Positions 1 through 31,944 of a stretch of DNA of 35,142 nt are shown piece by piece. The notes under the pieces are model-generated. The model saw only the letters and a program-made list of their open reading frames with translations. It searched no databases and had not been told where the DNA came from. A program made the position numbers and the translations under genes. Within the stretch, counting starts at the first letter, position 1, and the number at the start of each line of letters is the position of its first letter. The DNA comes from Candidatus Micrarchaeota archaeon (GTDB taxonomy: Archaea; Micrarchaeota; Micrarchaeia; Anstonellales; Anstonellaceae): assembly GCA_026396355.1 (NCBI GenBank), contig JAPLWY010000092.1, forward strand, positions 1 to 35,142, read 5' to 3'.

Positions 1-988
1 CGCGGCTGTCCTTTTTCACGCGCACCTTGTACCTGTACCATGGCCCATATGCAAGATGATATGGGATTATTGGATTAAAAAGCGCGAGCCGCCAAAGCGC
101 AATCCATGCTTTTCCCGCTGCCCCATATTCCGCGGGCAGCCTATCCAGCGCCTCTTTCACCTTGCCAATCTCGGATGCGTAGATTTTGGGGTTCATGTAA
201 ATCCTGATTTTGAGGAAAAGGAAAGGCAGCACAAGCAGGAAGCTTCTTTTGAAGCGCGCATAGTCGCCCGGTTTCACCATGCCGTTTTCGCAGCACGCCT
301 TTAGCAGGATGAAATAATGGTTCAAATATACGTCTGCAAGCCTGGATGGGAAAAGCGCGCCTTGCCTGCCAAAGTCCATTTCAAAGCCGAGGTTTTCCAT
401 TGTTTTCGCGTTCTGCATGAAATAAAGCAGGATTGGCAAATGGATGAACAGCCTTCCCATGTACGCTTCCACCTTTTTCCCATGGAACTTGAGGAACATG
501 CCCAAAAACTTCCTGTTCATGATAAGCGTGGACATATAGGACGAGTAATAGCCTGCCACCCCTGCGGGCGAGAAGGCGTGGCGGTAAAGCCCGGCAGGAG
601 TTTTCACTCCCTTCACCGGCCTTATGCACACCCCATCCGCATCTGTGCTTTCCAAAAGCGCCATCATGGCGGAGAAAGCCTCCTTTGTGAAGGATATTTC
701 ATCAGATGCCGCATGGAAGAACCTGCCGGTTGCAAGCTTCATGGACTGCAGCCCGTTCCTGTCATACCCAGTGTTTTTCCCCCAGCGGTGGTAGCGTATA
801 TTGAGTTTGCCCTTATAGCTGTCCACAACTCTCCTGGTCGCCAAATCCTCATTGTTGTCGGATATGCAAAGCTCGAACTTATCCTTCAAGCCCGTCTCCT
901 TTGCAATGCTGTCAAACATCGCAAGAAACCGCGCCACCTCATCAGGGCGGCGGTATGTCGGAATGCACGCGGAGTAGATGATTGCCAT
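1..988 (-). CDS. Family-2 glycosyltransferase (GT-A fold), 3' end cut by window edge
   Basis: Absent from the ORF track because no stop is reached. Reverse-strand ATG at 988..986 opens a frame that I hand-translated without stops to base 2 (329 codons: MAIIYSACIPTYRRPDEVARFLAMFDSIAKETGLKDKFELCISDNNEDLATRRVVDSYKGKLNIRYHRWGKNTGYDRN...). The N-terminal layout is classic GT2. The + strand ORFs 56..304 and 317..1039 are its antisense shadows. Confidence 0.75.
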   Translation of the reverse strand, partial: MAIIYSACIPTYRRPDEVARFLAMFDSIAKETGLKDKFELCISDNNEDLATRRVVDSYKGKLNIRYHRWGKNTGYDRNGLQSMKLATGRFFHAASDEISFTKEAFSAMMALLESTDADGVCIRPVKGVKTPAGLYRHAFSPAGVAGYYSSYMSTLIMNRKFLGMFLKFHGKKVEAYMGRLFIHLPILLYFMQNAKTMENLGFEMDFGRQGALFPSRLADVYLNHYFILLKACCENGMVKPGDYARFKRSFLLVLPFLFLKIRIYMNPKIYASEIGKVKEALDRLPAEYGAAGKAWIALWRLALFNPIIPYHLAYGPWYRYKVRVKKDSR

Positions 989-1082
989 GGTGCAGCTCTG
1001 TTGGGTTTTCTAACGGCAGTGATAAGACGCCCAATATAAATTAATAAGGTTTTAGGGCATTCCTTATCTCATTGGAATTCAG

Positions 1083-1275
1083 CATCGGCCGAGCCGGTGT
1101 CCGATGCATTTTGCAAGGCAAAATGCACCCAATTCTGGAAAATTTCCCGGGAAATTTTTCATTGTGCTGTGGATTCCGCTGGATTCACGGTGCGGGCAAA
1201 TTTATCGGAATTCTGCCCTTATGGCGCAAATCTGATGATTTGCACTGCTGAAAAAGTCTGCCCAAAGGCTTTTTC
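1083..1275. repeat. Series of inverted repeats in the GT2/GT4 divergent intergenic region
   Basis: CATCGG-12nt-CCGATG at 1083-1106. TGCATTTTGC-aag-GCAAAATGCA at 1105-1127 (10-bp arms). A perfect 20-bp palindrome AAAATTTCCCGGGAAATTTT at 1139-1158. GCAAATC-tgat-GATTTGC at 1226-1243. GAAAAAG-12nt-CTTTTTC at 1250-1275. Confidence 0.7.
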
Positions 1276-1303
1276 ATCCCGTATTTGAAGGAGGAAAATT
1301 TGC

Positions 1304-2392
1304 ATGGCTTTTGGCAAAAGGCGGTTTCCTGCAAAGAAGTCCGGCTCTCCCAGCGTGAGCTTCATATATGCGGGCAAGCTTGGCAGCGGCCTTGAAGCCA
1401 CGCTTACCCTTTACGAAGCGGCGAAACGCGAAGGATTCAGCTGCAGGCTGGTCCTCTCAACTGACAACTCCCGCCGCGCCCTTGTGGAACGGATTTACCC
1501 GGAGGCAAAGTTCATCAACTTCCTTTCCCCTGCCGAAGTTTTGGCCGAGGCGCGCGTCCTCTCAGGGAACATCGCCTTCTTCACCATGATTTCACCCAAG
1601 ATGTTCCCCCTCTTTTTCGCTGCGCGCGCAAAGAGGATATTCTACTTCCACGCATCCTATGACCGCGCATTCAATCCCCCTGGCGCCAGTTCCATATTTT
1701 CCGACAAATATTTCGACATTCTGCATTCGCTTGCCATAAGAAACTCGGACCTGGTGGTGGCAACACAACATCCCCTTGCCTGGCAAGTGAAAGTGCGCTT
1801 TGGCAAGGAGGCAGCCAGCCTTCTCCACCCGCCATTCTCCGTCCTGCGGAAGGGAATGTTCGACGAGTCAAAAAAGGTCGCGCTGCCTTTTTCACCGGGC
1901 GGCTATTTCCTTGATTTTGGGGGGCTTGACCGCCCCTATAAAGGCACTGATGTTCTTCTCAAGGCAGTGGACGGCACCCATCTTCCAACCGTGCTTGCGG
2001 GCAAGGCAAAGCTTCCCCCCCATGGAAAAAACGTCTTTCACATGTGCGGATGGCTTTCTGACGGGGAAATGCACTTCCTTGTGAAAAATGCAAAGTGCGT
2101 GGTGCTGCCCTATCTCTCAGCCTCGCAGTTTTCGGGCTGCATGGCGCTTGCATTTCACTTTGGCGTGCCGGTGGTTGCGCCTTTCTGCCCGGCATTCGAA
2201 GGCTGGATAGAGGAAGGCAAAACCGGCTGGTTCTTCCCGCAGGGAGACTGGCGCGGCTTGCGCGCCAAGATGGAATCGGTTGCCTCGGGCAAGGCGAAAT
2301 TCTCCAAATCCGCAATCGCGGGCAAGGAAAAGGAGATGGAATCCAAATCCCGCGCTGAGATTCGAAAGATTCTCGCACGCTTCATGCCCTAG
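1304..2392 (+). CDS. Family-4 (GT-B, group 1) glycosyltransferase
   Basis: 362-aa ORF preceded by GGAGG. The C-terminal half (GWLSDGEMHFLVKNAKCVVLPYLSASQFSGCMALAFHFGVPVVAP...EGWIEEGKTGWFF) matches the GT4 nucleotide-sugar binding region. Confidence 0.75.
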   Translation: MAFGKRRFPAKKSGSPSVSFIYAGKLGSGLEATLTLYEAAKREGFSCRLVLSTDNSRRALVERIYPEAKFINFLSPAEVLAEARVLSGNIAFFTMISPKMFPLFFAARAKRIFYFHASYDRAFNPPGASSIFSDKYFDILHSLAIRNSDLVVATQHPLAWQVKVRFGKEAASLLHPPFSVLRKGMFDESKKVALPFSPGGYFLDFGGLDRPYKGTDVLLKAVDGTHLPTVLAGKAKLPPHGKNVFHMCGWLSDGEMHFLVKNAKCVVLPYLSASQFSGCMALAFHFGVPVVAPFCPAFEGWIEEGKTGWFFPQGDWRGLRAKMESVASGKAKFSKSAIAGKEKEMESKSRAEIRKILARFMP

Positions 2393-2397
2393 CCATT

Positions 2398-3714
2398 TCA
2401 GCTTCGCCTGCTTTTCAAAAAATCGTGGAAGCACTCTGCAACATAACCGCGCATTTCATCAGTCAGGCCTGGGTAGACCCCTATCCAGAAAGTGCCGTTC
2501 ATTATGGTATCTGAATTTTCAAGCGAGCCCATCTTCTCGAACTTCCTGCTGCGATAGGCGGGCTGCCTCACCAGGTTGCCTCCAAACAGCATGCGCGTCT
2601 CAATGTTTTTCGACTCAAGATGGGCCACGATGTCGTTTTTGGAAAAGCCGGCGTCCTTTTTCACTGTGAGCGGGAAGCCAAACGGCGAAGGCTCGGCATT
2701 CGGGAGCTTTTTCGGCAGCACAAACGCCCATTCATAATCCTTCATCTGCCCAAGGTAAAATGCAAAATTCCCCTTCCTTTTTTCCACAAAGGCAGGCAGC
2801 TTTTTCAGCTGTGCGCAGCCCACCGCGGCCTGCATGTCGGTCACCTTAAGGTTGTAGCCTACATTCGAGTAGATGTACTTGTGGTCATAGCCATAGGGCA
2901 AGTCCCCCATTTTCCACTTGAAGCGCTTGCCGCAGGTGTCGCTCCTGCCTGCAGGGCACCAGCAGTCGCGGCCCCAGTCCCTGAAGGACTCTGCCAGCTT
3001 CTTGTGAACCGGCGAGGATGACATCACTGCTCCGCCCTCGCCCATGGTGATGTGATGGGCGGGATAAAAGCTCACAGTTGCCAATTCCCCGAACACGCCG
3101 ACAGGCTTGCCTGCGATTCTGGAGCCCACAGCATCGCAGCAGTCCTCTATCAGGTACATGCCGTGCTTTTTGGCAATGGCTGAAACAGCCGGGGCGTCAA
3201 ACGGGTTGCCCAGCGTGTGCGCAATCATTATGGCCTGCGCCCCTTTTTCCGCAGCCTCGGCAATCGAATCTGCGCTTGGGTTGTAAGTGCCAACCTCGGC
3301 GTCAACAAAAACCGGCAGCATCCCATTCTGGAAAATCGGATTTAGCGTGGTGGGGAAGCCCGTGGCGCAGGTGATCACCTTGTCGCCAGGCTTGAGCTTC
3401 TTTCCACCCAAAAAATCAGAAGTAAGGGCGGACAGCGCCACCAGGTTTGCAGACGAGCCGGAGTTCACAAGCGAGCAGTGCTTTGTGCCAAAAACAGCGG
3501 CGAACTCCTGTTCGAACCTTTCAGCATACCTTCCGGCAGTGAGCCAAAAGTCAAGCGAGGAATCCACCAGGGCAACGATTTCCTCCTCGTCATACACCCT
3601 GCCGGCATAATGCACCCTTGTTTTGCCCGGCACGAATTTTTCCTGCCTTGCGGACTCGTGGAACCTGGCGACCTTCTCCAAAATCTCCTTGCGAAGCTTG
3701 TCCTGTTCCATCAA
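2398..3714 (-). CDS. rfbH: CDP-6-deoxy-D-xylo-4-hexulose-3-dehydrase (E1; RfbH/DdhC type, DegT family)
   Basis: 438 aa, the typical RfbH length. Contains VNSGSSANLVALSALTS and SFYPAHHITMGEGG, where His replaces the PLP-Lys of DegT aminotransferases. That substitution is the E1 hallmark. Confidence 0.88.
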   Translation of the reverse strand: MMEQDKLRKEILEKVARFHESARQEKFVPGKTRVHYAGRVYDEEEIVALVDSSLDFWLTAGRYAERFEQEFAAVFGTKHCSLVNSGSSANLVALSALTSDFLGGKKLKPGDKVITCATGFPTTLNPIFQNGMLPVFVDAEVGTYNPSADSIAEAAEKGAQAIMIAHTLGNPFDAPAVSAIAKKHGMYLIEDCCDAVGSRIAGKPVGVFGELATVSFYPAHHITMGEGGAVMSSSPVHKKLAESFRDWGRDCWCPAGRSDTCGKRFKWKMGDLPYGYDHKYIYSNVGYNLKVTDMQAAVGCAQLKKLPAFVEKRKGNFAFYLGQMKDYEWAFVLPKKLPNAEPSPFGFPLTVKKDAGFSKNDIVAHLESKNIETRMLFGGNLVRQPAYRSRKFEKMGSLENSDTIMNGTFWIGVYPGLTDEMRGYVAECFHDFLKSRRS

Positions 3715-3717
3715 GAA

Positions 3718-4710
3718 TCAGCCAATCCGCTTTTTTCCAAAATAAGCCAAGTACCAGTCAATGGTCTCAGCAAGGCCTTCCTCAATGCCATACTTTGCCT
3801 TCCAGCCCAGCACCTCGCGCGCCTTTTTGGCCGACAGGTGCTGGTTGCGTATCTCCCCGCTTGCGCTGTTCTGCACTTTGGGCGCAATCGATTTTTTCAT
3901 GAGCTTGGAAATGAGCGAGACCATCTCAAGCGTGGTCATCTGCGCCTCGTTTGAGAAGTTGAACGCCTCTCCGCAAAGCGCTGGCTTGTACTTTTCGGCA
4001 AGCGTGAGATAAGCCGACACCGCGTCTTTGACGTAAATATAGTCCCGCACGTATTTTCCATCCGTCCTGATGACTGGCGCCTCATTCTTGCAAAGCGACT
4101 GTATGGTGCCTGGCACTATCCTGTTGAAGTTCAGGTCGCCTCCGCCGAAAAAGTTGCCGCAGCGCGAAATCGCAACAGGCAGCGAATAGGTCGCGGCATA
4201 AGACTGCGAAATCAGGTCAACGCAGCTTTTTGAAACATCATACGGATGCCTTCCCTGGAGCGGCGTATCCTCGGTGTAGGGCAGCACCTTCTGGTCCCCG
4301 TACGCCTTGTCCGACGATGCCACAATGATCTGCTCCACTGCCTTTCCATGCGTGCGGCACGCCTCCAGGAGATTCCAGGTTCCCTCGATATTCGCCCTGA
4401 AGGTGTGCAGCGGCGAGCGATTGGCAGTCTGGACAATGGTCTGCGCGCCAAGGTGGAATATGGTGGCCGGCTCGTACTCGTTTATCACCCTTTCAATAGC
4501 GTTCCTGTCCTCAAGTTCTCCTGCAGCCACTGTGACTTTTTTATCAAACCCTTCCGAAAAGAAACGCGAGTCGGGCACGCGGTCGCGCACCAGGCAGACC
4601 GGCTGCGCGCCCTGCGAAAGCAGCTCCTCCACCAGCCACGAGCCGACCAGGCCGCTGGCGCCGGTAAGCAGCACCTGCCTGCCATTCCAAAACGATGATG
4701 TTTTTGCCAT
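3718..4710 (-). CDS. rfbG: CDP-glucose 4,6-dehydratase (SDR family)
   Basis: MAKTSSFWNGRQVLLTGASGLVGSWL matches the RfbG N-terminus (xxFWxGKxVxVTGxTGFKGSWL). YDVSK is the YxxxK catalytic motif. I prefer the ATG at 4710 (GTGAT upstream) over the track start 4749, which would overlap rfbF. Confidence 0.82.
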   Translation of the reverse strand: MAKTSSFWNGRQVLLTGASGLVGSWLVEELLSQGAQPVCLVRDRVPDSRFFSEGFDKKVTVAAGELEDRNAIERVINEYEPATIFHLGAQTIVQTANRSPLHTFRANIEGTWNLLEACRTHGKAVEQIIVASSDKAYGDQKVLPYTEDTPLQGRHPYDVSKSCVDLISQSYAATYSLPVAISRCGNFFGGGDLNFNRIVPGTIQSLCKNEAPVIRTDGKYVRDYIYVKDAVSAYLTLAEKYKPALCGEAFNFSNEAQMTTLEMVSLISKLMKKSIAPKVQNSASGEIRNQHLSAKKAREVLGWKAKYGIEEGLAETIDWYLAYFGKKRIG

Positions 4711-4730
4711 ATTAATCACGCCTGCGCAAG

Positions 4731-5510
4731 CTACTTCCAGACTTTCCATGGGCGCTTGCCCTCATCCCACATGCCATTGAGCTCAAGATAGTCCTTGTAG
4801 GTGTCCATCGCGTGCCAAAATCCCTCATGCTTGTACATTGCAAGCTGTTTTTCCTTCACAAGCCGTTCCATGGGCTTTGTCTCAAGCGCGCAATTTTCAT
4901 CAATATCAAGATAATCGAACACATCCTTCTTGAAAACATAAAAGCCGCCGTTCACATAGTCATAAAGCACCGGCTTTTCCACAAAGGTCTCCACCAGCCC
5001 GTCCGTTCCTGGCTTTATGAGCCCTAGCTTGGAATGGGGGTGCACTGCGGTGAGCGTGCCTATCGTTTTCATTTTTCTGTGGAATTTCAGCTCATCCTCG
5101 ATGTTGGAGTCGATCAGCCCGTCCCCGTAAGTCAGGAAAAAATCATCCGTGCCGATGTACTTCTCAATTCTCTTTATCCGCGAGCCGGTGTTCGACTTCA
5201 GCCCGGTGTCCGCAAACGTTATTGTCCAGTCTTCAAAGTCCTTTGTCTTGTGTATCACGTCCCGCGCGCGGTCCGAGGTCTTTATTGTCACATCGTTGTG
5301 CATCATCTCATGCGTCATGAAAAACTGCTTTATCGAGTCTCCCTTGTAGCCCAGGCAAAGCACGAACTCGTTGTAGCCATAGTGCGAATACGTTTTCATG
5401 ATGTACCAAAGTATGGGCAGCCCGCCAATTGTCACCATGGGCTTTGGCTTGTATTCCGTTTCCTCGCGGAGGCGCGTTCCTTCCCCCCCGCACAAAATGA
5501 CCACTTTCAC
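4731..5510 (-). CDS. rfbF: Glucose-1-phosphate cytidylyltransferase
   Basis: (M)KVVILCGGEGTRLREETEYKPKPMVTIGGLPILWYIMKTYSHYGYNEFVLCLGYKG is near-colinear with RfbF/DdhA. About 259 aa. Start is GTG 5510 or TTG 5513. Confidence 0.88.
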   Translation of the reverse strand: MKVVILCGGEGTRLREETEYKPKPMVTIGGLPILWYIMKTYSHYGYNEFVLCLGYKGDSIKQFFMTHEMMHNDVTIKTSDRARDVIHKTKDFEDWTITFADTGLKSNTGSRIKRIEKYIGTDDFFLTYGDGLIDSNIEDELKFHRKMKTIGTLTAVHPHSKLGLIKPGTDGLVETFVEKPVLYDYVNGGFYVFKKDVFDYLDIDENCALETKPMERLVKEKQLAMYKHEGFWHAMDTYKDYLELNGMWDEGKRPWKVWK

Positions 5511-5655
5511 CAAAATCCCCCCGTACCCATGTTTTGCCCATGCTTTTTATTATACTTGCTCCCATTGCACACCAACTCTGTTCCCAACCACATGTATTTT
5601 AATTCATATTCATAGAATTTCATTCGCGCCCCCTATTTCGGGAACTGCGCGCATC

Positions 5656-6555
5656 ATGAGTGGGAAAATGGAAAAAGTGAAAGTGGCCATACTTGGCACA
5701 GGCAACATCGGCACCGATCTCCTAGTCAAGGTGATGCGCTCCAGCCATCTCGAATGCTCTCTTTTTGCAGGCAGGAGCAAGGACTCGCAAGGGATTGCGA
5801 GGGCGCGGGAAATGGGCATAAGCACAAGCACGGACTCTGTGGACGCGATACTTCGCGATCCAGGCTGCTGCGACATAGTTTTCGATTCCACCAATGCCGA
5901 GTCCCACCTGAAACATGCACTAGTGCTTGGCAAGCTGGGAAAATTCATGCTCGACCTCACTCCCTCAAAACTCGGTTTCATGTGCGTGCCCATTCTCAAC
6001 CTCAAGGAGTCGCTTTCCCACCAGGATATAAATCTCATAACCTGCGGAGGGCAGTCTTCCATCCCTTTTGCGCATGCCCTGATGGTATCCTGCCCGAAAA
6101 CAGAATACATCGAGCTTGCTTCAAGCATAGCCTCAAAGTCCGCCGGCCCAAGCACGCGCATAAACATAGATGAATATGTGCTGGCGACAAGGAAGGGCAT
6201 AGAGCATTTTACTGGCGTTAAGCGTGCAAAGGCAATGCTCAACCTTAATCCCGCGGAGCCCCCAATCAACATGCACAATACGCTTTATATGGAGACGAAA
6301 GACGAGCCTGACATCGGCACAATCCGGAAAAACGTCCTTGCTGTGGTGGAACAGATGAAGCGCTATACTCCGGGCGTGCACATTGTCGCCGGGCCGGTTT
6401 ATGAGGAAGGCAGGGTCACCCTGATAACCAGCGTGATCGGCGCCGGGGATTTCCTTCCGAAGTACGCGGGCAACCTGGACATAATGACTTGCGCAGCGGT
6501 TGCGGTCGCGGAAGAATACGCAAAAAGGACGGATGGCAAAGGTGCAAAACCATGA
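5656..6555 (+). CDS. dmpF: Acetaldehyde dehydrogenase (acetylating), DmpF/MhpF family
   Basis: MSGKMEKVKVAILGTGNIGTDLLVKVMRS (NAD fold) and the catalytic-Cys motif NLITCGGQSSIP. The track ORF start 5398 is an upstream extension across the divergent promoter. ATG 5656 (or 5668) fits the family N-terminus. Confidence 0.85.
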   Translation: MSGKMEKVKVAILGTGNIGTDLLVKVMRSSHLECSLFAGRSKDSQGIARAREMGISTSTDSVDAILRDPGCCDIVFDSTNAESHLKHALVLGKLGKFMLDLTPSKLGFMCVPILNLKESLSHQDINLITCGGQSSIPFAHALMVSCPKTEYIELASSIASKSAGPSTRINIDEYVLATRKGIEHFTGVKRAKAMLNLNPAEPPINMHNTLYMETKDEPDIGTIRKNVLAVVEQMKRYTPGVHIVAGPVYEEGRVTLITSVIGAGDFLPKYAGNLDIMTCAAVAVAEEYAKRTDGKGAKP

Positions 6556-7571
6556 AAGAGATACTCATAATCGATTCCACCCTGCGCGACGGCTCGCACG
6601 CGATGCGCCACCACTTCACTGCTGAAAATGTCCGTTCATATGCAGCTGCAGCAGAATCAGCCGGAGTGAAGGTGCTGGTGGTGGGGCACGGCAACGGGCT
6701 TGGCGCATCCTCCCTCCAAATAGGCAAGAGCCTGCTTTCCGACATGGAATATGTGTCGATTGCCATGAAAGAGCTGAAGAACACAAAGCTCGGGGTTCTC
6801 ACCGTCCCCGGGTTTGGCACGGTAAAAGATGACTTGGAGCCTGCAATCAAGGCTGGCGCGGAAGTGGTTTTCGTGACCTGCCACTGCACTGAGGCCGACA
6901 CCACGCAAAAGCACATCGAATACGTTTCATCAATCGGGAAAGAGGCGATAGGCGTGCTAATGATGACGCACATGCTCTCCCCCGAGGGGCTCCTGGAGCA
7001 GGCGCAAAAGATGCAAGGCTACGGGGCAAGCGGCATACTGCTCATGGACTCTGCCGGCGCTTCGCTCCCGCACGATGTCACTGCGAAAGTCTCGGCGCTG
7101 AAAAAAGGCCTCAATGTGAAAGTCGGCTTCCATGCGCACAACAACCTGGGCATGGCGGTTGCAAACGCCCTCGCTGCAGTTGAAGCCGGCGCCGCATTCA
7201 TAGACACCACCATGCGCGGGTACGGCGCAGGGGCGGGCAACTGCCCGATGGAAATCATAACCGCGGTGCTGCACAAGTCAGGCTACGCGACCGGCATGGA
7301 TGAATTCGCGCTCATGGGCATAAGCGACGGCATAGTGGCAAAGTTCATGAAAAAGCCGATTGAAATAGACGGCGTGCGGCTGGCAAGCGGGCTTGCAGGG
7401 GTTTTCTCCGGCTTCTGCCCGATTGCGGAGCGCGCAGGCGCGCGATTCGGCGTGGACCCGAAAGAGATACTCATGGAGCTTGGACGGCGCAAGATCGTGG
7501 CGGGGCAGGAGGATTACATAACCGAGGTCGCAATCGAGCTTGCCAAAAGAAAAAAAGAGACCAAGAAGTGA
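6552..7571 (+). CDS. dmpG: 4-hydroxy-2-oxovalerate aldolase, DmpG/MhpE family
   Basis: MKEILIIDSTLRDGSHAMRH and GFHAHNNLGMAVANALAAVEAGAAFIDTTMRGYGAGAGNCPME match the DmpG metal and pyruvate site motifs. Its start overlaps the dmpF stop (ATGA at 6552-6555). Confidence 0.85.
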   Translation: MKEILIIDSTLRDGSHAMRHHFTAENVRSYAAAAESAGVKVLVVGHGNGLGASSLQIGKSLLSDMEYVSIAMKELKNTKLGVLTVPGFGTVKDDLEPAIKAGAEVVFVTCHCTEADTTQKHIEYVSSIGKEAIGVLMMTHMLSPEGLLEQAQKMQGYGASGILLMDSAGASLPHDVTAKVSALKKGLNVKVGFHAHNNLGMAVANALAAVEAGAAFIDTTMRGYGAGAGNCPMEIITAVLHKSGYATGMDEFALMGISDGIVAKFMKKPIEIDGVRLASGLAGVFSGFCPIAERAGARFGVDPKEILMELGRRKIVAGQEDYITEVAIELAKRKKETKK

Positions 7572-7587
7572 TTGTTTGGGTGAGCCT

Positions 7588-9276
7588 ATGCACAGCGGAA
7601 AAATCAGGGTGGCTGATTACATATCCGGCTTCGTTGCAGGCAAGGGCATTTCAAAGATTTTCATGGTCGTCGGCGGGCTGAGCATGCATCTTGCGGATGC
7701 GTTTGCCAATGAAAAAAGGATGGGGTATGTCTCCATGCACCATGAGCAGGCGTGCGTGATGGCTGCTGAAGGATATGCAAGGGAAACCAGGACAGTGGGC
7801 GTGGCCTGCGTGACAGGCGGGCCTGGCGCGGTGAACACGGTCACCGGCGTGGTGAGCGCGCATTTCGATTCCTCCCCTGTCATAGTGTTTGCAGGGCAGA
7901 CAAAAGTCGAAGTCATCAAGGCAGAGGGCGTGCGGCAGTTCGGAGTGCAGGGTTTCGAGACCCTTCCGATATTCAAGCCGATAACCAAATACGCCGTTCT
8001 TATCGAAGACCCCGAAAAAGTGAAGTATTATCTTGAAAAGGCATATCATCTTTGCACCAGCGGGCACCCAGGGGTGGTGTGGATCGAGGTGCCCCTTGAT
8101 GTTCAAGGTGCGCTTATAGACCCTGGCAAGCTTGCCGGCTACGACCCCTCATCGGAAGAAAAGCCCATTCCGCACGATGAAGTGGCGCGCGCCGCGCAAA
8201 ATGCGGTTGCGCTCATCAAGGAATCCAAGCGGCCATTGCTTTTGATCGGCAACGGAGTGCGGCTCTCAAAATCAGAGGAAACCGCGGTCAAGGCCGCAGA
8301 AGCGCTCGGGCTTCCGATCATCACCTCCAGGAATGCCATTGACGCCATCGGCTCGGATCATCCGCTATTCATAGGGCGCCCTGGGACATACGGGACAAGG
8401 CCTGCCAATTTCGCAGCGCAGACCTGCGACCTGCTGCTCATAGTCGGCTGCAGGCTCAGCATGTCGCTTACCGGCTACAACTACTCTGATTTCGCCAAGG
8501 ATGCAAAAAAAATAATGGTGGACATCGACTGCTACGAGCTTAACAAGCCAAGCACTGCGAATTTCGGCATCAAAGTCGTTGCCGATGCCGGCGTTTTTCT
8601 CCAGGAGCTTTTGGCCGCTGCGGAAAAGGGCGGCATCAAAAGGAAAGACGCGTGGATTGCGCGCTGCCAGTCCTGGAAGGCAAGATACCCTGCCGTCCTC
8701 CCGGAATATTCTGAGGACAAGGATGGCATAAACTCATATTATTTCACAGGCAGGCTTTCCGAGCACATGGGGCCGCAGGATACTCTTGTGGTGGACACAA
8801 GTTCATGCTTCCATGTGGTGGCCCAGGCATTCCGCGTGAAAAAGGGCCAAAAATACATAACCACAGGAGGGCTTTCACCGATGGGATTCATGCTGCCTGC
8901 GGCAATAGGCGTTGCAAGCGTGAAAAAAAACGGGCGCACGGTCGGAATAGTGGGGGATGGCAGCCTGCAGATGAACATCCAGGAACTGCAGACAATCGTG
9001 CATTATAAGCTGCCGCTGAAGCTCTTTGTCTGGAACAACAACGGCTATCTGCTGATCAGGCACACGCAGAACAATTTCCAGGATGGCAGGCTGGTTGGCG
9101 AGGGGCCAAAAAGCGGGCTTTCCTGCCCTGACACGAAAAAGATAGCCGAGGCCTACGGCATCCCGTTCATGCGTGTTTCAAGGATAGCCGATCTTGACTT
9201 GGCAATCGAGAAGACCCTGCAGCATGACGGGCCGATGATCTGCGAAATAATCACCCCGGAAAACCAGCTTGTGTGA
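7588..9276 (+). CDS. ThDP-dependent acetolactate-synthase-like enzyme (YerE-like candidate); C-terminal tail displaced into another frame
   Basis: MHSGKIRVADYISGFVAGKGISKIFMVVGG begins the ThDP pyrimidine-binding domain. The ThDP motif is VGDGSLQMNIQELQT...WNNNGY. A further tail (..SKPFADMFPFLGKEAYLKETNVENPD*) is readable in another frame at 9279..9359. ATG 7588 is chosen over the TTG at 7540, which overlaps dmpG. Confidence 0.8.
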   Translation: MHSGKIRVADYISGFVAGKGISKIFMVVGGLSMHLADAFANEKRMGYVSMHHEQACVMAAEGYARETRTVGVACVTGGPGAVNTVTGVVSAHFDSSPVIVFAGQTKVEVIKAEGVRQFGVQGFETLPIFKPITKYAVLIEDPEKVKYYLEKAYHLCTSGHPGVVWIEVPLDVQGALIDPGKLAGYDPSSEEKPIPHDEVARAAQNAVALIKESKRPLLLIGNGVRLSKSEETAVKAAEALGLPIITSRNAIDAIGSDHPLFIGRPGTYGTRPANFAAQTCDLLLIVGCRLSMSLTGYNYSDFAKDAKKIMVDIDCYELNKPSTANFGIKVVADAGVFLQELLAAAEKGGIKRKDAWIARCQSWKARYPAVLPEYSEDKDGINSYYFTGRLSEHMGPQDTLVVDTSSCFHVVAQAFRVKKGQKYITTGGLSPMGFMLPAAIGVASVKKNGRTVGIVGDGSLQMNIQELQTIVHYKLPLKLFVWNNNGYLLIRHTQNNFQDGRLVGEGPKSGLSCPDTKKIAEAYGIPFMRVSRIADLDLAIEKTLQHDGPMICEIITPENQLV

Positions 9277-9360
9277 TTTCAAAGCCGTTTGCCGACATGT
9301 TCCCTTTCCTTGGCAAAGAGGCATACCTGAAGGAAACAAACGTGGAAAATCCGGATTGAC

Positions 9361-10131
9361 ATGGCAAAAAAAATCCTCCTCACTGGCGGCGCCGGATTCA
9401 TTGGCAGGAATATTTCAGAGCAGCTGGGGGCGTCATACGAAATATCCTGCCCTGCGCGGGCAGAGCTTGACCTTCTTGATGCCGATGCGGTTCGGCGCTA
9501 CTTGAAAGGCAACGGATTCGATGCTGTCCTGCACGCAGCCAACATCGGCGGCACCAGGAAGACTGCCGGCATGGCAGGGGTGGCGGAGTCCAACCTCAAA
9601 TGCTTCATGAACATCGCGCAATGCTCTTCTTATTTCGGGAAAATGATCCAGCTTGGCTCCGGCGCGGAATATGACAAGAGCCGCCCCCTTGTGCGCGTGC
9701 GCGAGGAGGAATTCGGCAAGCGCGCGCCGCAGGACGAATACGGGCGCTACAAGTACGAATGCTCGAAATACATCGAGCAGGCAAGCAACATCACCTGCCT
9801 GCGCATATTCGGGTGCTTCGGGAAATACGAGGACTACGAGATCCGCTTCATCTCAAACGCAATCTGCAAGTCGATTTTCGGCCTGCCGATAACAATCGCC
9901 AACAAGAACGCAGTCTTCAGCTATCTCTATATTGATGATTTTGTGCGCATAGTGGAGCATTTCATCGGGCATGATGGCGCGCACAAGTTCTACAACGCCG
10001 TGCCTGATGAAACAGCCGACCTTGTCACAATCGCAGGCAAGGTGAAGGAAATCTCAGGGAGCAGCCTGCCTGTTGCCGTGAAAAATCAAGGCATGGGGAA
10101 CGCATACACCGGCGACTACTCTCGCCTCTAA
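9361..10131 (+). CDS. NAD(P)-dependent sugar epimerase/reductase (extended SDR), interrupted by in-frame TAA
   Basis: MAKKILLTGGAGFIGRNI is a Rossmann motif, and YECSK is YxxxK. After the TAA at 10129-10131 the same frame continues with SELPNFKFTSLDKGIRSLHSWYIANKEKI..., a typical SDR C-terminus, up to the TGA at 10249-10251. Confidence 0.75.
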   Translation: MAKKILLTGGAGFIGRNISEQLGASYEISCPARAELDLLDADAVRRYLKGNGFDAVLHAANIGGTRKTAGMAGVAESNLKCFMNIAQCSSYFGKMIQLGSGAEYDKSRPLVRVREEEFGKRAPQDEYGRYKYECSKYIEQASNITCLRIFGCFGKYEDYEIRFISNAICKSIFGLPITIANKNAVFSYLYIDDFVRIVEHFIGHDGAHKFYNAVPDETADLVTIAGKVKEISGSSLPVAVKNQGMGNAYTGDYSRL

Positions 10132-10250
10132 TCAGAACTTCCCAATTTTAAGTTCACCAGCCTTGACAAAGGGATAAGAAGCCTGCATTCCTGGTATATT
10201 GCGAACAAGGAAAAAATCGAATATGGAAAGATAGCGTCTGACCGCTACTG

Positions 10251-11444
10251 ATGTGCTTGGCTATGGCATTGCAACTCTCCGACCGGATGGCGAGCGTTTC
10301 CTACGAGATACGCGACATAATCGCGCGCGCAAAGAAAGTCGAGGCAGGCGGCAGGAAAATCCACTATTTCAACATCGGCGACCCGAACAGTTTCGGCTTC
10401 GCGCCTCCGCAGCACGTGACAGATGCAGTAATGGCGGCACTTTCGGACAAGAAATACAGCGCATACTGCCCCTCAAAAGGCGACCCGCAGCTCTGCGACG
10501 CAATCGGGAAAATCGAGGGATTGGGCGGGGAGGACGTGACAATACATTCCGGCCTGTCCGAGGGAATAGAGTTTCTCATGTCTGCGCTGGTGAACCCCGG
10601 CGAGCACGTTCTCCTTCCTTCGCCTTCGTATCCCCTTTACATCACCAAGCTGCGCATCCTCGGAGGAGGCGAGAATTATTACCCGTGCGACTCCGAGTTT
10701 GTGCCAGACATCGACGCGATGCGCGCCAGGATAAACGGAAAGACGCGGGCAATCGCAGTGATAAACCCCAACAATCCGACTGGGGCAAGCTACCCTCGCA
10801 AAATACTAAAGGGCGTCGCAGACCTCGCAGCCGAATTCAAGCTGCCTATAATAGCCGACGAAATCTACGACAGGCTCACCCTGGACGAAGGGCACGCGGT
10901 CAACATGCGCGATGTTGCCTCCCCTGACCAGCTGCTCGTCTCTGGCAATGGCATTTCCAAGAATTTCATCTACCCTGGCGCGCGCGTGGGCTACCTTGCA
11001 TTCCACGGGGAAGGGATCGGGAAGCTGCGCGATGCCATTGTAAAGCTTTGCAACCAGCGCCTGTCAATCAATTGGGAAATGCAGCGCGGCGCCCTGGCGG
11101 CATTCACCTTGCCTGAAAGCCACCTGGGCGAGTTTAGGGCGGCTCTCCGCCTCAGGCGCGACATTGTCCACAAGCGGCTCAACGAAATTCCAGGGATTTC
11201 CTGCGTCAAGCCCAAGGCTGCATTCTATTCGTTCCCCAAGGTGGAGGCGGCATCATTCAAGGACGACCGGGAATTCACCTATAGTCTCCTGGAAGAAACA
11301 GGCGTATTGGTCGTGCCAGGGTCGAATTTCTCGCCAATTCTTGGGGAGAAGCACTTCAGGCTGGTTTTTCTTGCCCAGCCATCCGAGCTTGAGGAGGCGA
11401 TGTCCAAGCTTGATGGTTTCATGAGAAAGAAGCCCAAATCCTGA
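10251..11444 (+). CDS. Alanine aminotransferase-type class I PLP aminotransferase
   Basis: SYEIRDIIARAKKVEAGGRKIHYFNIGDP, INPNNPTGA and SGNGISKNFIYPGARVGY (PLP Lys) are colinear with archaeal AlaAT as I recall it. The start could also be ATG 10263 or 10287. Confidence 0.82.
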   Translation: MCLAMALQLSDRMASVSYEIRDIIARAKKVEAGGRKIHYFNIGDPNSFGFAPPQHVTDAVMAALSDKKYSAYCPSKGDPQLCDAIGKIEGLGGEDVTIHSGLSEGIEFLMSALVNPGEHVLLPSPSYPLYITKLRILGGGENYYPCDSEFVPDIDAMRARINGKTRAIAVINPNNPTGASYPRKILKGVADLAAEFKLPIIADEIYDRLTLDEGHAVNMRDVASPDQLLVSGNGISKNFIYPGARVGYLAFHGEGIGKLRDAIVKLCNQRLSINWEMQRGALAAFTLPESHLGEFRAALRLRRDIVHKRLNEIPGISCVKPKAAFYSFPKVEAASFKDDREFTYSLLEETGVLVVPGSNFSPILGEKHFRLVFLAQPSELEEAMSKLDGFMRKKPKS

Positions 11445-11524: not shown

Positions 11525-13177
11525 ATGGCAGAAGAGGACGCGGCAACACACTCCCACGAAGTGGCACGGGGCAGTTTCTGGGGGCTTTTTGGCACGATTG
11601 CGCTCAAGATAGTCTCATTCGCATATGCAATCTACGTTGCGCGCGCATTCTCGCAGGAGAATGTGGGGCTATTCTACCTTTCCCTATCTGTGATATCATT
11701 GATCGGCTTCTGGCGCAACCTTGGATTGCCCTCAGCCCTCCAGCGCTACGTGCCATATTTCGAGGCAAAAAACCAGGGGGGCAAGATAATATCGCTTCTC
11801 AAGATAAGTTTTGTTGCAAACGCGCTTCTTGGCGTGATGCTATTCATCATGATCTTCGTTCTTGCAGACCCTATCGGCGCAATCTACAAAAGCCCGGGGC
11901 TGTCGGACGGGCTGCGCCTGCTTGCGGCATACGTGCTTTTTGAAAACCTATACAGCGTATCGCTCAGCTTCCTTCAGGGAAGGCGGGACATCAAGTCCTA
12001 CCAGTTCCTGAACAATGTGCAAAACGTTGCGAAATTGGCGCTCACCGTCATTCTCTTCAGCTTTTTCGGCGCCACGCTTTTCACCCTGTCGGCAGCATTC
12101 ATACTCGCGTATGCGGCGGTATTCTTGCTGAGCATTCCAATGCTGCTGCGCAAGGCATCCGACGTTCCTTCATCAGGGGAGGCGATGAGCGCGTCAGAGG
12201 TCCTGCACGACATCATCCCGTTCGGAATCACGCTTACCATCGTCCAGAGTTTCTGGATACTGATTTCCTCGACAGACCGTGCGCTTCTCGGATATTTTGG
12301 CAATCCTGCAACATCTGTGGAAACGGTCGCAATTTATTCAATAGCGTCGCAGCTCGCGCTTACCATCATGGTATTCCCAAGCGCGGTGGGCAGCATTTTC
12401 CTTCCGGTCATTTCCCGCCTTGTAGGGAAGGGGGATCGCAGTGCCATGCTCAAAGTCATCCAGACTTCCCAGCGCTGGATACTTTTCATCACCATCCCGG
12501 TCGCGCTTGCCACCATGGCTTTTGCAGGCGAGATGCTCTCGGTTTTCTACGGGGGTTCCTACCGCTCAGGCGCAAATGCAATGTCGATATTCATTCTCGG
12601 CCTGCTTTTCTCAACATTAACCTACCCGATCTCGCTTGCGCTTGCGGGCATGCGCCTGGTCCGCCTTGAGCTTTATGTTGCAATCGCATGCGCAGTGGTC
12701 AACCTTGCACTGAACGTATTTCTCATTCCATTTTTTGGCATGGAGGGCGCGTCAGCGGCATCCGCAGCGGCATTCCTTATCTCAGCATGGATGTTCGAGC
12801 GCTATGGCAGGCAATACCTTTCCTACCGCACGCCGAGCGGCATTTACAAGCTGTTTGCGGCCGGTGCAGTCGCGTTTGCCGCGATACTTCTCCTAAAACC
12901 CCTTGCCGGCATCATAGTTTCACTTGTGCCGCCAGTCGGATCAGGCGAGTTTGCGATTTACTCCGCAAAATTCGTCTACTTGGCTGCGCTTGGCGTGATG
13001 GGGGGCATCGGGCTTGTAATATTCGGCGCGGTGGCGCTTTTATTGCGCACTTTCAAGCACGAGGACATAAGCTTGATGCGCTCTGCTGCGAAAAAGACGC
13101 CTCTCCCTCAAAAAATTATCCTGTTTGCTGAAAAAATCGCCCTTTTGGGAGTTGAAAGCGGGAAAAGAGCAGCTTAG
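11525..13177 (+). CDS. Polysaccharide/oligosaccharide flippase (MOP/Wzx, AglR-like)
   Basis: 550-aa protein that is almost entirely hydrophobic helices, with the usual Wzx architecture. It sits inside the glycan operon. Confidence 0.7.
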   Translation: MAEEDAATHSHEVARGSFWGLFGTIALKIVSFAYAIYVARAFSQENVGLFYLSLSVISLIGFWRNLGLPSALQRYVPYFEAKNQGGKIISLLKISFVANALLGVMLFIMIFVLADPIGAIYKSPGLSDGLRLLAAYVLFENLYSVSLSFLQGRRDIKSYQFLNNVQNVAKLALTVILFSFFGATLFTLSAAFILAYAAVFLLSIPMLLRKASDVPSSGEAMSASEVLHDIIPFGITLTIVQSFWILISSTDRALLGYFGNPATSVETVAIYSIASQLALTIMVFPSAVGSIFLPVISRLVGKGDRSAMLKVIQTSQRWILFITIPVALATMAFAGEMLSVFYGGSYRSGANAMSIFILGLLFSTLTYPISLALAGMRLVRLELYVAIACAVVNLALNVFLIPFFGMEGASAASAAAFLISAWMFERYGRQYLSYRTPSGIYKLFAAGAVAFAAILLLKPLAGIIVSLVPPVGSGEFAIYSAKFVYLAALGVMGGIGLVIFGAVALLLRTFKHEDISLMRSAAKKTPLPQKIILFAEKIALLGVESGKRAA

Positions 13178-20645: not shown

Positions 20646-20654
20646 CAAACACAC

Positions 20655-23766: not shown

Positions 23767-24620
23767 ATGGACAATTCAATAATTTCTCAAACAGACCTCA
23801 AATTAAAGCAGTTCTCGCGCGGAAAGGTGCGCGACACTTATGAGCTGCCTGACGGCAATCTTCTGATGGTGGCATCAGACAGGCTCTCTGCATTCGACGT
23901 TATTTTCCCTGACGGAATACCGAAAAAAGGAAGAGTGCTCACGCAGCTCTCACTGTTCTGGTTCGAGCGGCTCAAGGGAATTGTGGACAGCCACCTGATT
24001 ACTTCTGAAGTGCCCTCAGGCTTGCCCGATTACCTTGAAGGCAGGTGCATGGTGGTGAAAAAGGCAAAGATAATCCCGCTTGAATGCGTGGTGCGCGGCT
24101 ATCTTGCCGGTTCGGGCTGGAAAGAATACCAGAAAAGCGGCACAGTTTGCGGGATAAAACTGCCTGCTGGCTTGAAAAACGCAAGCAAGCTTCCCACGCC
24201 AATTTTCACTCCCTCCACAAAAGCGGAAAAAGGGAAGGGAAAAAGCTGGTTGGGGCAGAAACATTCGATTCAGTCCGCGCACTTGCACTAAAAATTTACT
24301 CAACAGCAGCAGACTATGCCAAAACGCGCGGCATAATTCTTGCAGACACGAAATTCGAATTCGGCTTTTACAACGGGAAAATAATTCTGGTGGACGAGGC
24401 GCTCACGCCGGATTCTTCGCGCTACTGGCCAGAGGAATCATATAAGGAAGGCATTTCCCCCCCCTCATATGACAAGCAGTTTGTGCGCGACTATGTGGAG
24501 AAACTGGGCTGGAACAAATTGCTCCCAGCGCCTCGCCTTCCTGCTGATATAATAAGCAAGACAACCGGAAAATACGTTGAAGCATACGAGCGGCTGACCG
24601 GGAAAAAATTCCAGTATTAG
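23767..24620 (+). CDS. purC: SAICAR synthetase, frame broken near 24230-24245
   Basis: The N-terminal part [26 protein letters not shown]...[12 protein letters not shown] stops at 24291. The family continuation [42 protein letters not shown]...DSSRYW runs in another frame to 24620. Confidence 0.85.
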
Positions 24621-31819: not shown

Positions 31820-31841
31820 GCACTGCTGTTCGGTTGTGAAA

Positions 31842-31849: not shown

Positions 31850-31944
31850 CCATCGCAGGCGCGGCATTTATTTCCCCCGCGCATTTCGTCGGGAAGCGCT
31901 TACGCTAAGGTTTGTTTGTTGAGTGCGCTTGGCGCACTGCTCTC

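Follow-up and report, generated by a model that had tools for sequence, protein, structure and literature searches.

The locus described here is probably an erwiniose-type cassette for an acyl-branched deoxysugar, carried by a Micrarchaeota-like archaeon of the DPANN group. To our knowledge, a complete cassette for a four-carbon-branched 3,6-dideoxy sugar had previously been described in bacteria only; the pathway itself is already known, and it is the archaeal carrier that is new. The likely product is a C4-branched 3,6-dideoxy sugar of the erwiniose type rather than yersiniose, because the gene set matches the erwiniose cluster, whose carboligase ErwE refuses pyruvate and takes (R)-4-hydroxy-2-oxopentanoate, a chemistry established for the Pectobacterium enzyme (PMC9306805). 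The first-pass annotation had proposed a yersiniose-type sugar. Its general logic (a CDP-activated 3,6-dideoxy-4-ketohexose, a ThDP-dependent branching step and a reductase) is retained, whereas the two-carbon, pyruvate-based reading is probably wrong, since the operon also encodes a BphI/BphJ-like pair, the signature of erwiniose.

Gene identities, gene order, conservation and clade membership were established by sequence comparison. The window, i.e. the whole stretch analysed (35,142 nucleotides of contig JAPLWY010000092.1), displays the following features, with the basis of each assignment in brackets:

1304..2392, plus strand: GT4-class glycosyltransferase adjoining rfbH (PF13692, PF00534)
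2398..3714, minus strand: RfbH/DdhC/E1-type CDP-6-deoxy-4-hexulose 3-dehydrase, with PMP and [2Fe-2S] (NF011936, 3BCX)
3718..4749, minus strand: NDP-hexose 4,6-dehydratase, probably CDP-glucose 4,6-dehydratase (TIGR02622, PDB matches, position)
4731..5513, minus strand: glucose-1-phosphate cytidylyltransferase, RfbF/DdhA-like (TIGR02623, synteny with L001)
5514..5658: intergenic region between the divergent rfbFGH unit and the branching operon (sequence read)
5659..6555, plus strand: DmpF/BphJ/ErwJ-like acetylating acetaldehyde dehydrogenase (TIGR03215, PF09290, ITCGGQ)
6552..7571, plus strand: DmpG/BphI/ErwI-like class II pyruvate aldolase, a 4-hydroxy-2-oxovalerate aldolase (TIGR03217, PF00682, PF07836)
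7588..9276, plus strand: YerE/ErwE-like ThDP-dependent carboligase, truncated copy of 562 aa (three TPP domains, JanthE match, clade)
9273..9359, plus strand: deletion site and out-of-frame remnant of the ThDP C-terminus, ending in ISKPFADMFPFLGKEAYLKETNVENPD and a stop (C-termini of L085-L087 and L001/L003/L004)
9361..10251, plus strand: extended SDR, candidate branch-ketone reductase (YerF/ErwF role), 296 aa when intact (PF01370)
10251..11444, plus strand: class I/II, alanine-aminotransferase-like aminotransferase (PF00155, NF006230)
11525..13177, plus strand: Wzx/MurJ-superfamily polysaccharide flippase (PF01943, PF13440, PF03023)
17916-18905: AglH-type gene (PF00953)
33151-34275: second GT4-class glycosyltransferase

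All three rfb homologues announced by the first-pass annotation were recovered, RfbH above its NCBIfam cutoff (NF011936, 665 bits versus 423) and the other two below theirs. RfbH aligns with Yersinia pseudotuberculosis E1 (3BCX) at 500 bits, and both expectations raised for it were borne out: the E1-specific His-for-Lys motif is there, with SFYPAHHITMGEGG identical and His220 present, and the Fe-S cysteines (Cys193/251/253/261) are all kept. The 4,6-dehydratase, for which gene callers place the start at 4710 (330 aa, a call taken from L085), has TIGR02622 as its best model (208 bits, cutoff 278); its top PDB matches, 1RKX and 1WVG, are both CDP-glucose 4,6-dehydratases, and its gene sits between those of the cytidylyltransferase and E1. 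The cytidylyltransferase falls slightly short of its cutoff (TIGR02623, 285 versus 300 bits) and shares 83% identity with its syntenic counterpart in L001. Given these two sub-cutoff scores, the identity of the nucleotide and of the hexose is uncertain. As for the electron donor of E1, a scan of the full window found no E3-like 2Fe-2S/FNR ORF, in agreement with the first reading. However, none was detected either when the 84 comparison loci and the first 20 kb of the window were scanned together; since E3 is absent from every examined locus, its absence here is not a peculiarity of this archaeon.

The rightward operon is indeed tightly packed, but the gene list first drawn up for it had missed the two genes at its head, whose products both exceed their NCBIfam equivalog cutoffs. 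The dehydrogenase (alternative start at 5668) reaches 351 bits with TIGR03215 (cutoff 282), contains PF09290 and carries the catalytic Cys motif ITCGGQ aligned with solved acetaldehyde dehydrogenases; its stop overlaps the start of the aldolase, so that the two genes are tightly coupled. The aldolase reaches 395 bits with TIGR03217 (cutoff 286), contains PF00682 and PF07836, and keeps Arg17, Asp18, His21, His200 and His202 (DmpG numbering). In catabolic DmpG/BphI, a Tyr at DmpG position 291 keeps out the (4R) substrate. The window aldolase is a natural Tyr291→Phe variant, and Phe occupies this position in all 10 cluster-linked aldolases examined. In BphI, the corresponding Y290F exchange is the change admitting the (4R) substrate, but making the engineered enzyme (4R)-specific took a further exchange, at Leu87 (PMC3962088); as the window aldolase retains Leu there, (4R) stereochemistry is only suggested.

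The ThDP enzyme, starting at 7588 as first described, displays all three TPP domains, the GDGS...NN motif and the HEQ Glu. Compared with amino-acid acetolactate synthases (ALS), as had been advised, it proved to be something else: every ALS equivalog model scores far under its cutoff (best 359 versus 538), and the top PDB match is JanthE (8RPH, 403 bits, versus approx. 235 bits for AHAS). In a neighbour-joining tree, it falls with aldolase-linked rather than aldolase-less enzymes, in a clade recovered in 98 of 100 bootstrap replicates and marked by a Gly in RQxGxQG, a Glu→Gly exchange adjoining the active site; this position is Glu in all other 71 loci and in the pyruvate-type PpYerE, whereas JanthE, which accepts 4-hydroxy-2-oxovalerate, has Gly. 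Among the nine loci whose ThDP protein is at least 45% identical to that of the window, six have DmpFG adjoining, L009 has none within 10 kb, and the L011 and L060 sequences are too short to judge. ThDP proteins at or below 43% identity have no adjoining DmpFG. The extended SDR, starting at 9361, was confirmed directly after the ThDP gene (PF01370, GxxGxxG and YxxxK motifs). In L001-L004, the gene following the ThDP gene encodes a counterpart with 56-70% identity. In nine bacterial loci, identities of 41-46% were obtained with genes no further than 4 kb from the ThDP gene (in L063, up to 5.6 kb).

The 80 genome loci used for comparison were retrieved with two peptide patterns, of which one is clade-specific; locus frequencies are therefore not unbiased. 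The DmpF-DmpG-ThDP-SDR operon is found in Micrarchaeota contigs L001-L004 and in L085-L087; the L088 contig ends inside the ThDP gene. Both divergent units are kept together in related archaeal contigs (L001-L003, L085/L087), in the same arrangement around the intergenic region, which is presumably a bidirectional promoter region. A 554-kb Methanocellaceae MAG contig (L081) contains DmpF-DmpG-ThDP and rfb genes, with no SDR homologue detected alongside them, and a 6.5-kb contig from a Methanoregulaceae bin (L006) holds a partial set (RfbF, RfbG, ThDP, DmpF and DmpG; no RfbH on the contig). In bacteria, the DmpF-DmpG-ThDP set accompanies rfb genes in Fibrobacteres and Clostridia, a short Endomicrobiellum contig has DmpG-ThDP only, and the cassette is complete in the cultured Lysinibacillus fusiformis and Geomonas limicola. 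The aldolase and dehydrogenase are thus conserved with the operon across two domains.

On the proposed route, the leftward unit would produce CDP-glucose (RfbF) and then CDP-4-keto-6-deoxyglucose (4,6-dehydratase), from which the E1-type PMP/[2Fe-2S] 3-dehydrase would form CDP-4-keto-3,6-dideoxyglucose; no E3 being present, this enzyme would receive its electrons from housekeeping ferredoxin or flavodoxin. From the rightward operon, the DmpF-like enzyme would convert acetyl-CoA into acetaldehyde, which the DmpG-like aldolase would condense with pyruvate into 4-hydroxy-2-oxopentanoate, its Tyr291→Phe exchange being expected to let in the (4R) enantiomer. The ThDP enzyme would then decarboxylate this keto acid and attach the resulting four-carbon acyl-anion equivalent at C-4 of the keto sugar, and the SDR would reduce the branch ketone, giving CDP-3,6-dideoxy-4-C-(1,3-dihydroxybutyl)hexose, an erwiniose-type octose. 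A surface glycan would finally receive the sugar via the neighbouring glycosyltransferase, the Wzx flippase and AglH-type machinery. What we infer in this scheme is the donor, the stereochemistry, the source of electrons for E1, the glycan that accepts the sugar and that the pathway is active in archaea. The GT4 gene adjoining rfbH is, by its position, the candidate transferase for the branched sugar, and the flippase is syntenic with its L001 counterpart (47% identity). Of the glycosylation island first described, AglH, the Wzx-like flippase and GT4 were thereby recovered; GT2 reduces to a single partial ORF, judged by eye, which runs off the window start.

Both the ThDP and the SDR gene are damaged in the window's own sequence, and the pathway is probably intact only in near-identical sister genomes. 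The ThDP gene has lost 40 nt between 9273 and 9274, a deletion flanked by TGAT microhomology that shifts the frame, so that the ORF ends at 9276; 7588..9359, first read as one protein, is therefore not a single open frame. The missing segment encodes IPRVSSEKLPDGR, nearly invariant across the family, and the truncated protein lacks the conserved C-terminal 40 residues, compared with 603 aa in the near-identical contigs; once the frame is restored, the ThDP stop and the start of the SDR gene are 1 nt apart. The SDR itself has a premature TAA at 10129-10131, reaches 10251 only via read-through and loses 39 residues; relative to L085-L087, it shows four clustered non-synonymous changes, namely Lys→stop and three further substitutions. 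Both disruptions had been overlooked in the first-pass annotation. Three independent contigs, otherwise 99.9-100% identical, have neither the ThDP deletion nor the SDR changes, and both genes are intact there. We give an even chance to the view that the source genome holds a decaying or switched-off pseudogene cluster, yielding at most CDP-4-keto-3,6-dideoxyglucose or nothing, or else that these are assembly errors in a functional cluster. A frameshifting deletion at a microhomology and clustered SDR changes, all unique with respect to three sister contigs, speak for this view, as do several other window genes that look split or truncated. Decay is countered by the intact genes that the sister contigs show to be kept in the population; moreover, the essential gene FtsZ also appears truncated, and sequence error is therefore favoured over biology.

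Turning to the product, a related but different, undescribed sugar seems unlikely. It would arise from another aldehyde (e.g. propionaldehyde from propionyl-CoA), or, in this lineage, from the coupled aminotransferase, which would make a different 2-oxo-acid donor out of an amino acid or aminate the product. The aldolase has Thr/Val at DmpG Leu89/Leu90, and L89A in BphI opens the pocket for longer aldehydes (PMC3962088); ErwE takes several gamma-functionalised 2-oxo acids, transamination being noted as a donor route (PMC9306805). The aminotransferase gene is translationally coupled to that of the SDR, its start overlapping the stop of the latter, and in Ryanbacteria locus L069 another member of this Pfam family is encoded between ThDP and RfbH. 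However, the aminotransferase (PF00155; NF006230, 381 bits, below the cutoff of 534) is closest to housekeeping alanine aminotransferases and, although present in L086/L087, is missing from L001-L004, whose operon is otherwise alike. It is a lineage-specific accessory gene, for which pyruvate supply would be the simplest role.

A yersiniose-type product is quite improbable. Here the ThDP enzyme would attach a two-carbon acetyl branch derived from pyruvate, the SDR would reduce it to hydroxyethyl, and DmpFG would feed or balance pyruvate and acetaldehyde or be unrelated. Such a reading accommodates an enzyme within the broad YerE-like group directly followed by an SDR, and JanthE, its closest solved relative, accepts pyruvate as well. 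Yet ErwE, the sole characterised enzyme with DmpFG-type partners, does not; the window enzyme lies in the well-supported aldolase-linked clade and has Gly where PpYerE and the 71 loci outside this clade have Glu, and the dehydrogenase and aldolase are translationally coupled inside an operon conserved in archaea and bacteria. Finally, it is scarcely credible that the ThDP gene codes for an acetolactate/acetohydroxyacid synthase beside a catabolic DmpFG, with a coincidental rfb neighbourhood: the top NCBIfam names do read acetolactate synthase large subunit, and public annotations often agree, but in 57 of 85 sequences the ThDP gene has an RfbH no more than 10 kb away, the Tyr usual in catabolic DmpG/BphI is missing from the aldolase, and no meta-cleavage partner genes were seen in the neighbourhood.

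The erwiniose-type reading can be set against several known systems. The aldolase and dehydrogenase resemble the DmpFG/BphIJ complexes (1NVM; 286 and 220 bits to chains A and B), sharing the catalytic Arg, Asp and His, the metal His, the communication domain and the catalytic Cys; they differ in their proposed biosynthetic role and in the stereo-controlling Tyr291 (BphI Tyr290), replaced by Phe in all cluster-linked copies. JanthE of Janthinobacterium sp. HH01 (8RPH/8RPI/8RPJ) has a broad donor range and shares the Gly marker, but displays a CDG ThDP motif instead of the canonical GDGS of the window enzyme. SpnQ-type 3-dehydrases are likewise E1-like [2Fe-2S]/PMP enzymes without a dedicated E3 partner gene, and SpnQ can be served by general reductase pairs of the ferredoxin or flavodoxin kind (PMC8987622); by analogy, general reductases may serve the window 3-dehydrase, even though the latter is a close orthologue of E1 with a CDP sugar as substrate, whereas the SpnQ substrate is a TDP-2,6-dideoxy sugar. 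With the yersiniose A system of Y. pseudotuberculosis (DdhA-D, YerE, YerF), the locus shares the CDP-4-keto-3,6-dideoxyglucose acceptor route and ThDP branching followed by reduction; YerE, however, uses pyruvate and needs no aldolase. The nearest parallel by gene set, rather than by Erw sequence identity, is the erwiniose cluster of P. atrosepticum SCRI1043 (Steitz et al. 2022, PMC9306805), in which ErwE, a YerE-like carboligase, the NAD(P)H reductase ErwF, the BphI-like aldolase ErwI and the BphJ-like dehydrogenase ErwJ are clustered with the genes for CDP-4-keto-3,6-dideoxyglucose. The window differs in having no nearby E3 gene and an extra coupled aminotransferase and, above all, in its setting: an AglH/Wzx glycosylation island in an archaeal host, as opposed to the LPS O-antigen of Pectobacterium.

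The rightward operon, which a divergent spacer of 145 nt separates from the minus-strand rfb unit, was described in the first-pass annotation as a tightly packed operon with a ThDP enzyme followed by an SDR. Both genes are present, but the annotation made no mention of an acetaldehyde dehydrogenase and an aldolase encoded in the same operon, and these two genes change the interpretation given there. The features concerned are as follows:

2398-3714, minus strand, RfbH/E1 homologue (NCBIfam NF011936, 665 versus a cutoff of 423)
3718-4749, minus strand, 4,6-dehydratase, best matched by the CDP-glucose model and structures, under the curated cutoff
4731-5513, minus strand, glucose-1-phosphate cytidylyltransferase, best matched by the CDP-glucose model, under the NCBIfam cutoff
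approx. 5659-6555, plus strand, DmpF-like acetylating acetaldehyde dehydrogenase (TIGR03215, 351 versus a cutoff of 282)
6552-7571, plus strand, DmpG-like 4-hydroxy-2-oxovalerate aldolase (TIGR03217, 395 versus a cutoff of 286)
from 7588, plus strand, ThDP enzyme (TPP_N/M/C domains)
from 9361, plus strand, extended SDR (GxxGxxG and YxxxK motifs)
10251-11444, plus strand, class I/II aminotransferase
11525-13177, plus strand, Wzx-like flippase

The dehydrogenase and aldolase ORFs overlap, and the ThDP gene begins 16 nt past the aldolase. A gene set of this kind is known from the erwiniose cluster of Pectobacterium atrosepticum, which holds ErwE, ErwF, ErwI and ErwJ together with the genes for CDP-4-keto-3,6-dideoxyglucose (Steitz et al. 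2022, PMC9306805). ErwF (WP_011093011) is a reductase, ErwI (WP_011093013) a BphI-like aldolase and ErwJ (WP_011093012) a BphJ-like acetaldehyde dehydrogenase; ErwE (WP_011093010) is a YerE-like ThDP enzyme that refuses pyruvate and couples 4-hydroxy-2-oxopentanoate, preferably the (R) form, to a ketone (PMC9306805). Gene content and clade membership support the view that the locus is functionally a cluster of the erwiniose type. The yersiniose-type pathway initially proposed for 2398-10251, a route in which pyruvate is the donor and an aldolase is not required, does not agree with an operon that holds the aldolase-dehydrogenase pair, nor with a ThDP enzyme that belongs to an aldolase-linked clade.

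An identity as acetolactate synthase (IlvB/IlvI/IlvG) can be rejected for this ThDP enzyme, as all ALS equivalog scores are far under their curated cutoffs (the best, TIGR00118, gives 359.5 bits versus 538); the comparison with ALS suggested in the first-pass annotation thus places the protein outside the amino-acid enzymes. Its best PDB match is the YerE-like JanthE (8RPH, 403 bits), AHAS and PpYerE reaching only approximately 235-243 bits. In a neighbour-joining tree rooted on PpYerE, the aldolase-linked ThDP enzymes form one clade (98/100 bootstrap), which also takes in two contig-end cases and the variant locus L062; the Micrarchaeota subclade of this tree is recovered in 100/100 replicates. 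The window enzyme falls inside the aldolase-linked clade and apart from the other 71 loci, at none of which a DmpF or DmpG homologue was found. The two groups also differ in the motif RQxGxQ-X, where X is Gly in 11 clade members and Glu in all 71 other loci. The same residue is Gly in JanthE, which takes 4-hydroxy-2-oxovalerate as donor, and Glu in PpYerE, a YerE homologue whose family is described as limited to pyruvate and 2-oxobutyrate. It lies two residues past JanthE V121, a substrate or product contact according to docking, and Gly also occupies it in all 120 database proteins closest to the window enzyme. This clade placement and the Glu-to-Gly change shared with JanthE indirectly suggest that the donor of the window enzyme is (R)-4-hydroxy-2-oxopentanoate and not pyruvate. 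The variant L062 (10001-13654) is a clade member without DmpFG, with Ser at the marker position and a radical-SAM/SPASM-like gene beside rfbF; it may represent a further donor variant.

Gene adjacency was followed among 80 species-representative loci. ThDP proteins at least 45% identical to that of the window have DmpFG adjacent in six of nine cases (Fibrobacteres, a Methanoregulaceae MAG, a 554-kb Methanocellaceae contig, Clostridia, Endomicrobiellum and a short ‘Gammaproteobacteria’ contig). The remaining three are a Nitrospinaceae locus (L009) without DmpFG within 10 kb and two loci too short to tell (L011 and L060); ThDP genes at most 43% identical are all without DmpFG. Among the best 120 matches of a protein search seeded from the ‘Gammaproteobacteria’ contig (L007), the few named ones were relatives from Patescibacteria, Roizmanbacteria, Elusimicrobia and Omnitrophota. 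Pectobacterium lies outside both the 80 genome loci and these 120 matches, and the 80 loci include no Yersinia.

The aldolase retains the catalytic and metal residues Arg17, Asp18, His21, His200 and His202 (DmpG numbering). At DmpG-291 (BphI-290), where the solved aldolases 1NVM and 8IH7 have Tyr, the window copy and all nine other cluster-linked copies have Phe. In BphI, the corresponding Y290F change abolished the exclusivity for the (4S) form and admitted (4R)-4-hydroxy-2-oxopentanoate, full stereo-inversion requiring an additional change at Leu87 (PMC3962088). This second site is Leu in the window aldolase and His, Tyr or Phe in several bacterial and methanogen copies. An aldolase of the Phe type would fit the (R) preference of ErwE. 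A catabolic, meta-cleavage role of DmpFG was rejected, given the gene context and the Tyr-to-Phe change. Among 150 DmpG-family representatives, 24 are of the Phe type, 18 of the canonical Tyr type and 85 fall in a His-type group of approximately 700 aa. These 85 of the 150 nearest representatives at 50% identity (P0154-P0270) are mostly of approximately 600-840 aa, a few being of approximately 330-360 aa; in this large subfamily, Tyr stands in place of His21 and His in place of Tyr291, with a motif F-H-S-S-F.

In the proposed pathway, the DmpF-like enzyme would convert acetyl-CoA to acetaldehyde, which the aldolase would join to pyruvate to give 4-hydroxy-2-oxopentanoate. The ThDP enzyme would decarboxylate this acid and add the resulting unit to the CDP keto sugar at C-4, and the SDR, whose position after the ThDP gene is conserved in Micrarchaeota, would reduce the side-chain ketone. 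The expected outcome would be a 3,6-dideoxyhexose bearing, as in erwiniose, a 1,3-dihydroxybutyl branch instead of the hydroxyethyl branch of yersiniose. The aminotransferase, whose start overlaps the SDR stop in the sister contigs of the window lineage, is missing from the four Micrarchaeota contigs with a related operon (L001-L004). It resembles alanine aminotransferases, under cutoff, and a gene of its Pfam family stands between the ThDP and RfbH genes of a Ryanbacteria locus. Pyruvate supply would be its simplest role, but it may also make an alternative 2-oxo-acid donor or modify the sugar.

In the leftward unit, RfbH aligns almost without gaps to the Yersinia pseudotuberculosis E1 (3BCX, 500 bits). 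The His-for-Lys motif reported in the first-pass annotation is indeed in place, as SFYPAHHITMGEGG is identical to the wild-type motif of 3BCX and its first His is His220, a position fixed from the H220K mutant entry 3BB8, which has K at that site. The Fe-S cysteines, for which a check had been proposed, are all conserved (Cys193, 251, 253 and 261), and the four-Cys [2Fe-2S] motif is thus complete. With His where related enzymes have the PLP-binding Lys, these four cysteines and an equivalog-level score, the protein has the sequence hallmarks of an E1/DdhC/RfbH 3-dehydrase. RfbH is linked to the ThDP family in 57 of 85 sequences (a count that includes the window and the duplicate contigs L001 and L002), and its gene is carried by 54 of the 84 comparison loci.

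As the first-pass annotation had noted, no E3 (an ORF with 2Fe-2S and FNR parts) was found in the window by a Cys-motif scan. This is not, however, a peculiarity of the archaeon: the same scan, used alone, gave no credible match among the 84 comparison loci, so that the absence is general for the cassette and the puzzle is no longer specific to a Micrarchaeota-like carrier. Since its cysteines are intact, E1 still needs electrons. SpnQ, an E3-less [2Fe-2S] 3-dehydrase, is served by ferredoxin or flavodoxin reductase pairs of general function (PMC8987622), and by analogy such pairs would be the most likely donors here. One companion family, the most widespread with 56 loci, was considered as E3 and rejected, being a GtrB/DPM1-like GT2 whose C-terminal part has membrane helices (for example L081 7862-8800 and L037 14007-14969). 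Found in 56 of 85 sequences (L008-L084), it is about as common as RfbH, which hints that the branched sugar might pass first to polyprenyl phosphate. This GT2 is absent from the window, and a different GT2 lies beside rfbH in L001.

The window copy itself may be defective. The aldolase of the window recurs without change in four Logan contigs, and three of these, independent of one another (L085-L087), reach through the SDR and match the window at 99.9-100% apart from two exceptions; over the 3.2-kb first segment L086 shows zero mismatches and the others a single shared mismatch at 5569. Relative to these contigs, the window lacks after 9273 a 40-nt segment that has TGAT on both flanks and codes for IPRVSSEKLPDGR, nearly invariant in the ThDP family. 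The frame annotated as open over 7588..9359 is therefore shifted and stops at 9276, giving 562 aa instead of 603. The SDR gene carries four substitutions within 36 nt (10103, 10117, 10129 and 10138); each changes an adenine (A>C, A>T, A>T and A>C) and is non-synonymous, and one gives TAA in place of a Lys codon at 10129-10131, which costs the protein its final 39 residues. The ThDP and SDR genes of the sister contigs encode 603 and 296 aa. An origin of these adenine-only changes in a diversity-generating retroelement was rejected, since 10041-10220 has no second copy anywhere in the window as a template repeat, inspection of its long ORFs by eye, with profile scans covering part of them, showed no reverse transcriptase, and one change creates a stop codon. 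The two lesions may reflect either real pseudogenisation or assembly error. Several other window genes look split or truncated: a SAICAR synthase spread over two overlapping frames (23767-24620), FtsZ with an aberrant C-terminus (29172-30158), a thymidine/AMP-phosphorylase-like gene, recognised by eye only, split into ORFs of 377 and 154 aa (30273-31867), and a UDP-GlcNAc 2-epimerase ending at 302 aa (14557-15465). This suggests that the assembly is error-prone or that the genome is decaying.

The closest ThDP homologues are 57-71% identical; all named ones come from MAGs labelled Micrarchaeia, Micrarchaeota or Parvarchaeota, and most others from metagenome contigs. A Micrarchaeia contig (L001/L002, 78-165 kb) shares synteny with the window that starts at rfbH and takes in Wzx, PGM, a nucleotidyltransferase, an epimerase, an AglH-type GT4 and HMG-CoA reductase, and further archaeal-looking genes of the window were recognised from translations. 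The source of the window is a Micrarchaeota-like archaeon of the DPANN group. Between the AglH-type gene and HMG-CoA reductase, the minus strand (18906-20654) encodes a 582-aa multi-pass membrane protein without Pfam match, whose 588-aa counterpart in L001, also without Pfam match, has an apparently conserved position; a glycan polymerase or an oligosaccharyltransferase-like protein is a possible identity. The DmpF-DmpG-ThDP-SDR operon recurs in four further Micrarchaeota contigs. Co-conservation of the two divergent units, expected from the first-pass annotation, holds in L001-L003, whereas L004 keeps upstream only the RfbH homologue and other nucleotide-sugar genes. There (1-4511), a GHMP kinase and a nucleotidyltransferase-HAD phosphatase fusion occupy the place of rfbF beside the same operon, which suggests that this cassette makes a different activated sugar.

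Outside this lineage, the whole cassette is found in cultured Lysinibacillus fusiformis and Geomonas limicola. In L. fusiformis (L090, 3463-19797) it adjoins NeuB/CMP-sugar genes and FlaG/FliD, and the branched sugar may thus decorate flagellin. The Methanocellaceae contig (L081, 6093-17790) carries rfbF, rfbG, the ThDP gene, DmpF, DmpG and rfbH in a methanogen MAG, so that its archaeal carriers extend beyond DPANN; several of the contig's genes lie in multiple frames, consistent with long-read errors. Overall, the pathway resembles a seven-gene module, shared widely and probably mobile, of CPR bacteria, Elusimicrobia, Firmicutes, Desulfuromonadota and archaea.

The literature searched yielded no report linking archaea to YerE-like enzymes, 3,6-dideoxyhexoses, or acyl-branched or branched sugars; the chemistry is already known from bacteria and its archaeal occurrence is new. 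A bacterial pathway defined in 2022 would thereby extend to DPANN archaea and methanogens, with an unusual glycan sugar as its predicted product. We regard as rather improbable the broader proposal that DPANN archaea and some methanogens decorate their surface glycans, via a horizontally shared E3-less cassette, with a long-branched octose known only from bacterial lipopolysaccharide, the window lineage being wired to a transaminase such that its sugar or donor supply differs and is chemically new. As sequence markers, Gly instead of Glu in the ThDP enzyme and Phe instead of Tyr in the aldolase could separate long-branch from acetyl-branch pathways and help to predict side-chain stereochemistry, and the cultured carriers now named are organisms in which the sugar could be checked.

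As in the erwiniose cluster, the window has a BphI-/BphJ-like pair adjoining a YerE-like ThDP gene. As regards the genes for CDP-4-keto-3,6-dideoxy-D-glucose, E1 is clear, the transferase and dehydratase are under cutoffs and E3 is absent. By its position and motifs the SDR, which in the window carries a premature stop, is a candidate for the role of ErwF. Yersiniose-type (YerE/YerF) clusters, on the contrary, use pyruvate as donor without a keto-acid-forming aldolase, and it is from these that the window enzyme is set apart by both its Gly marker and its clade.
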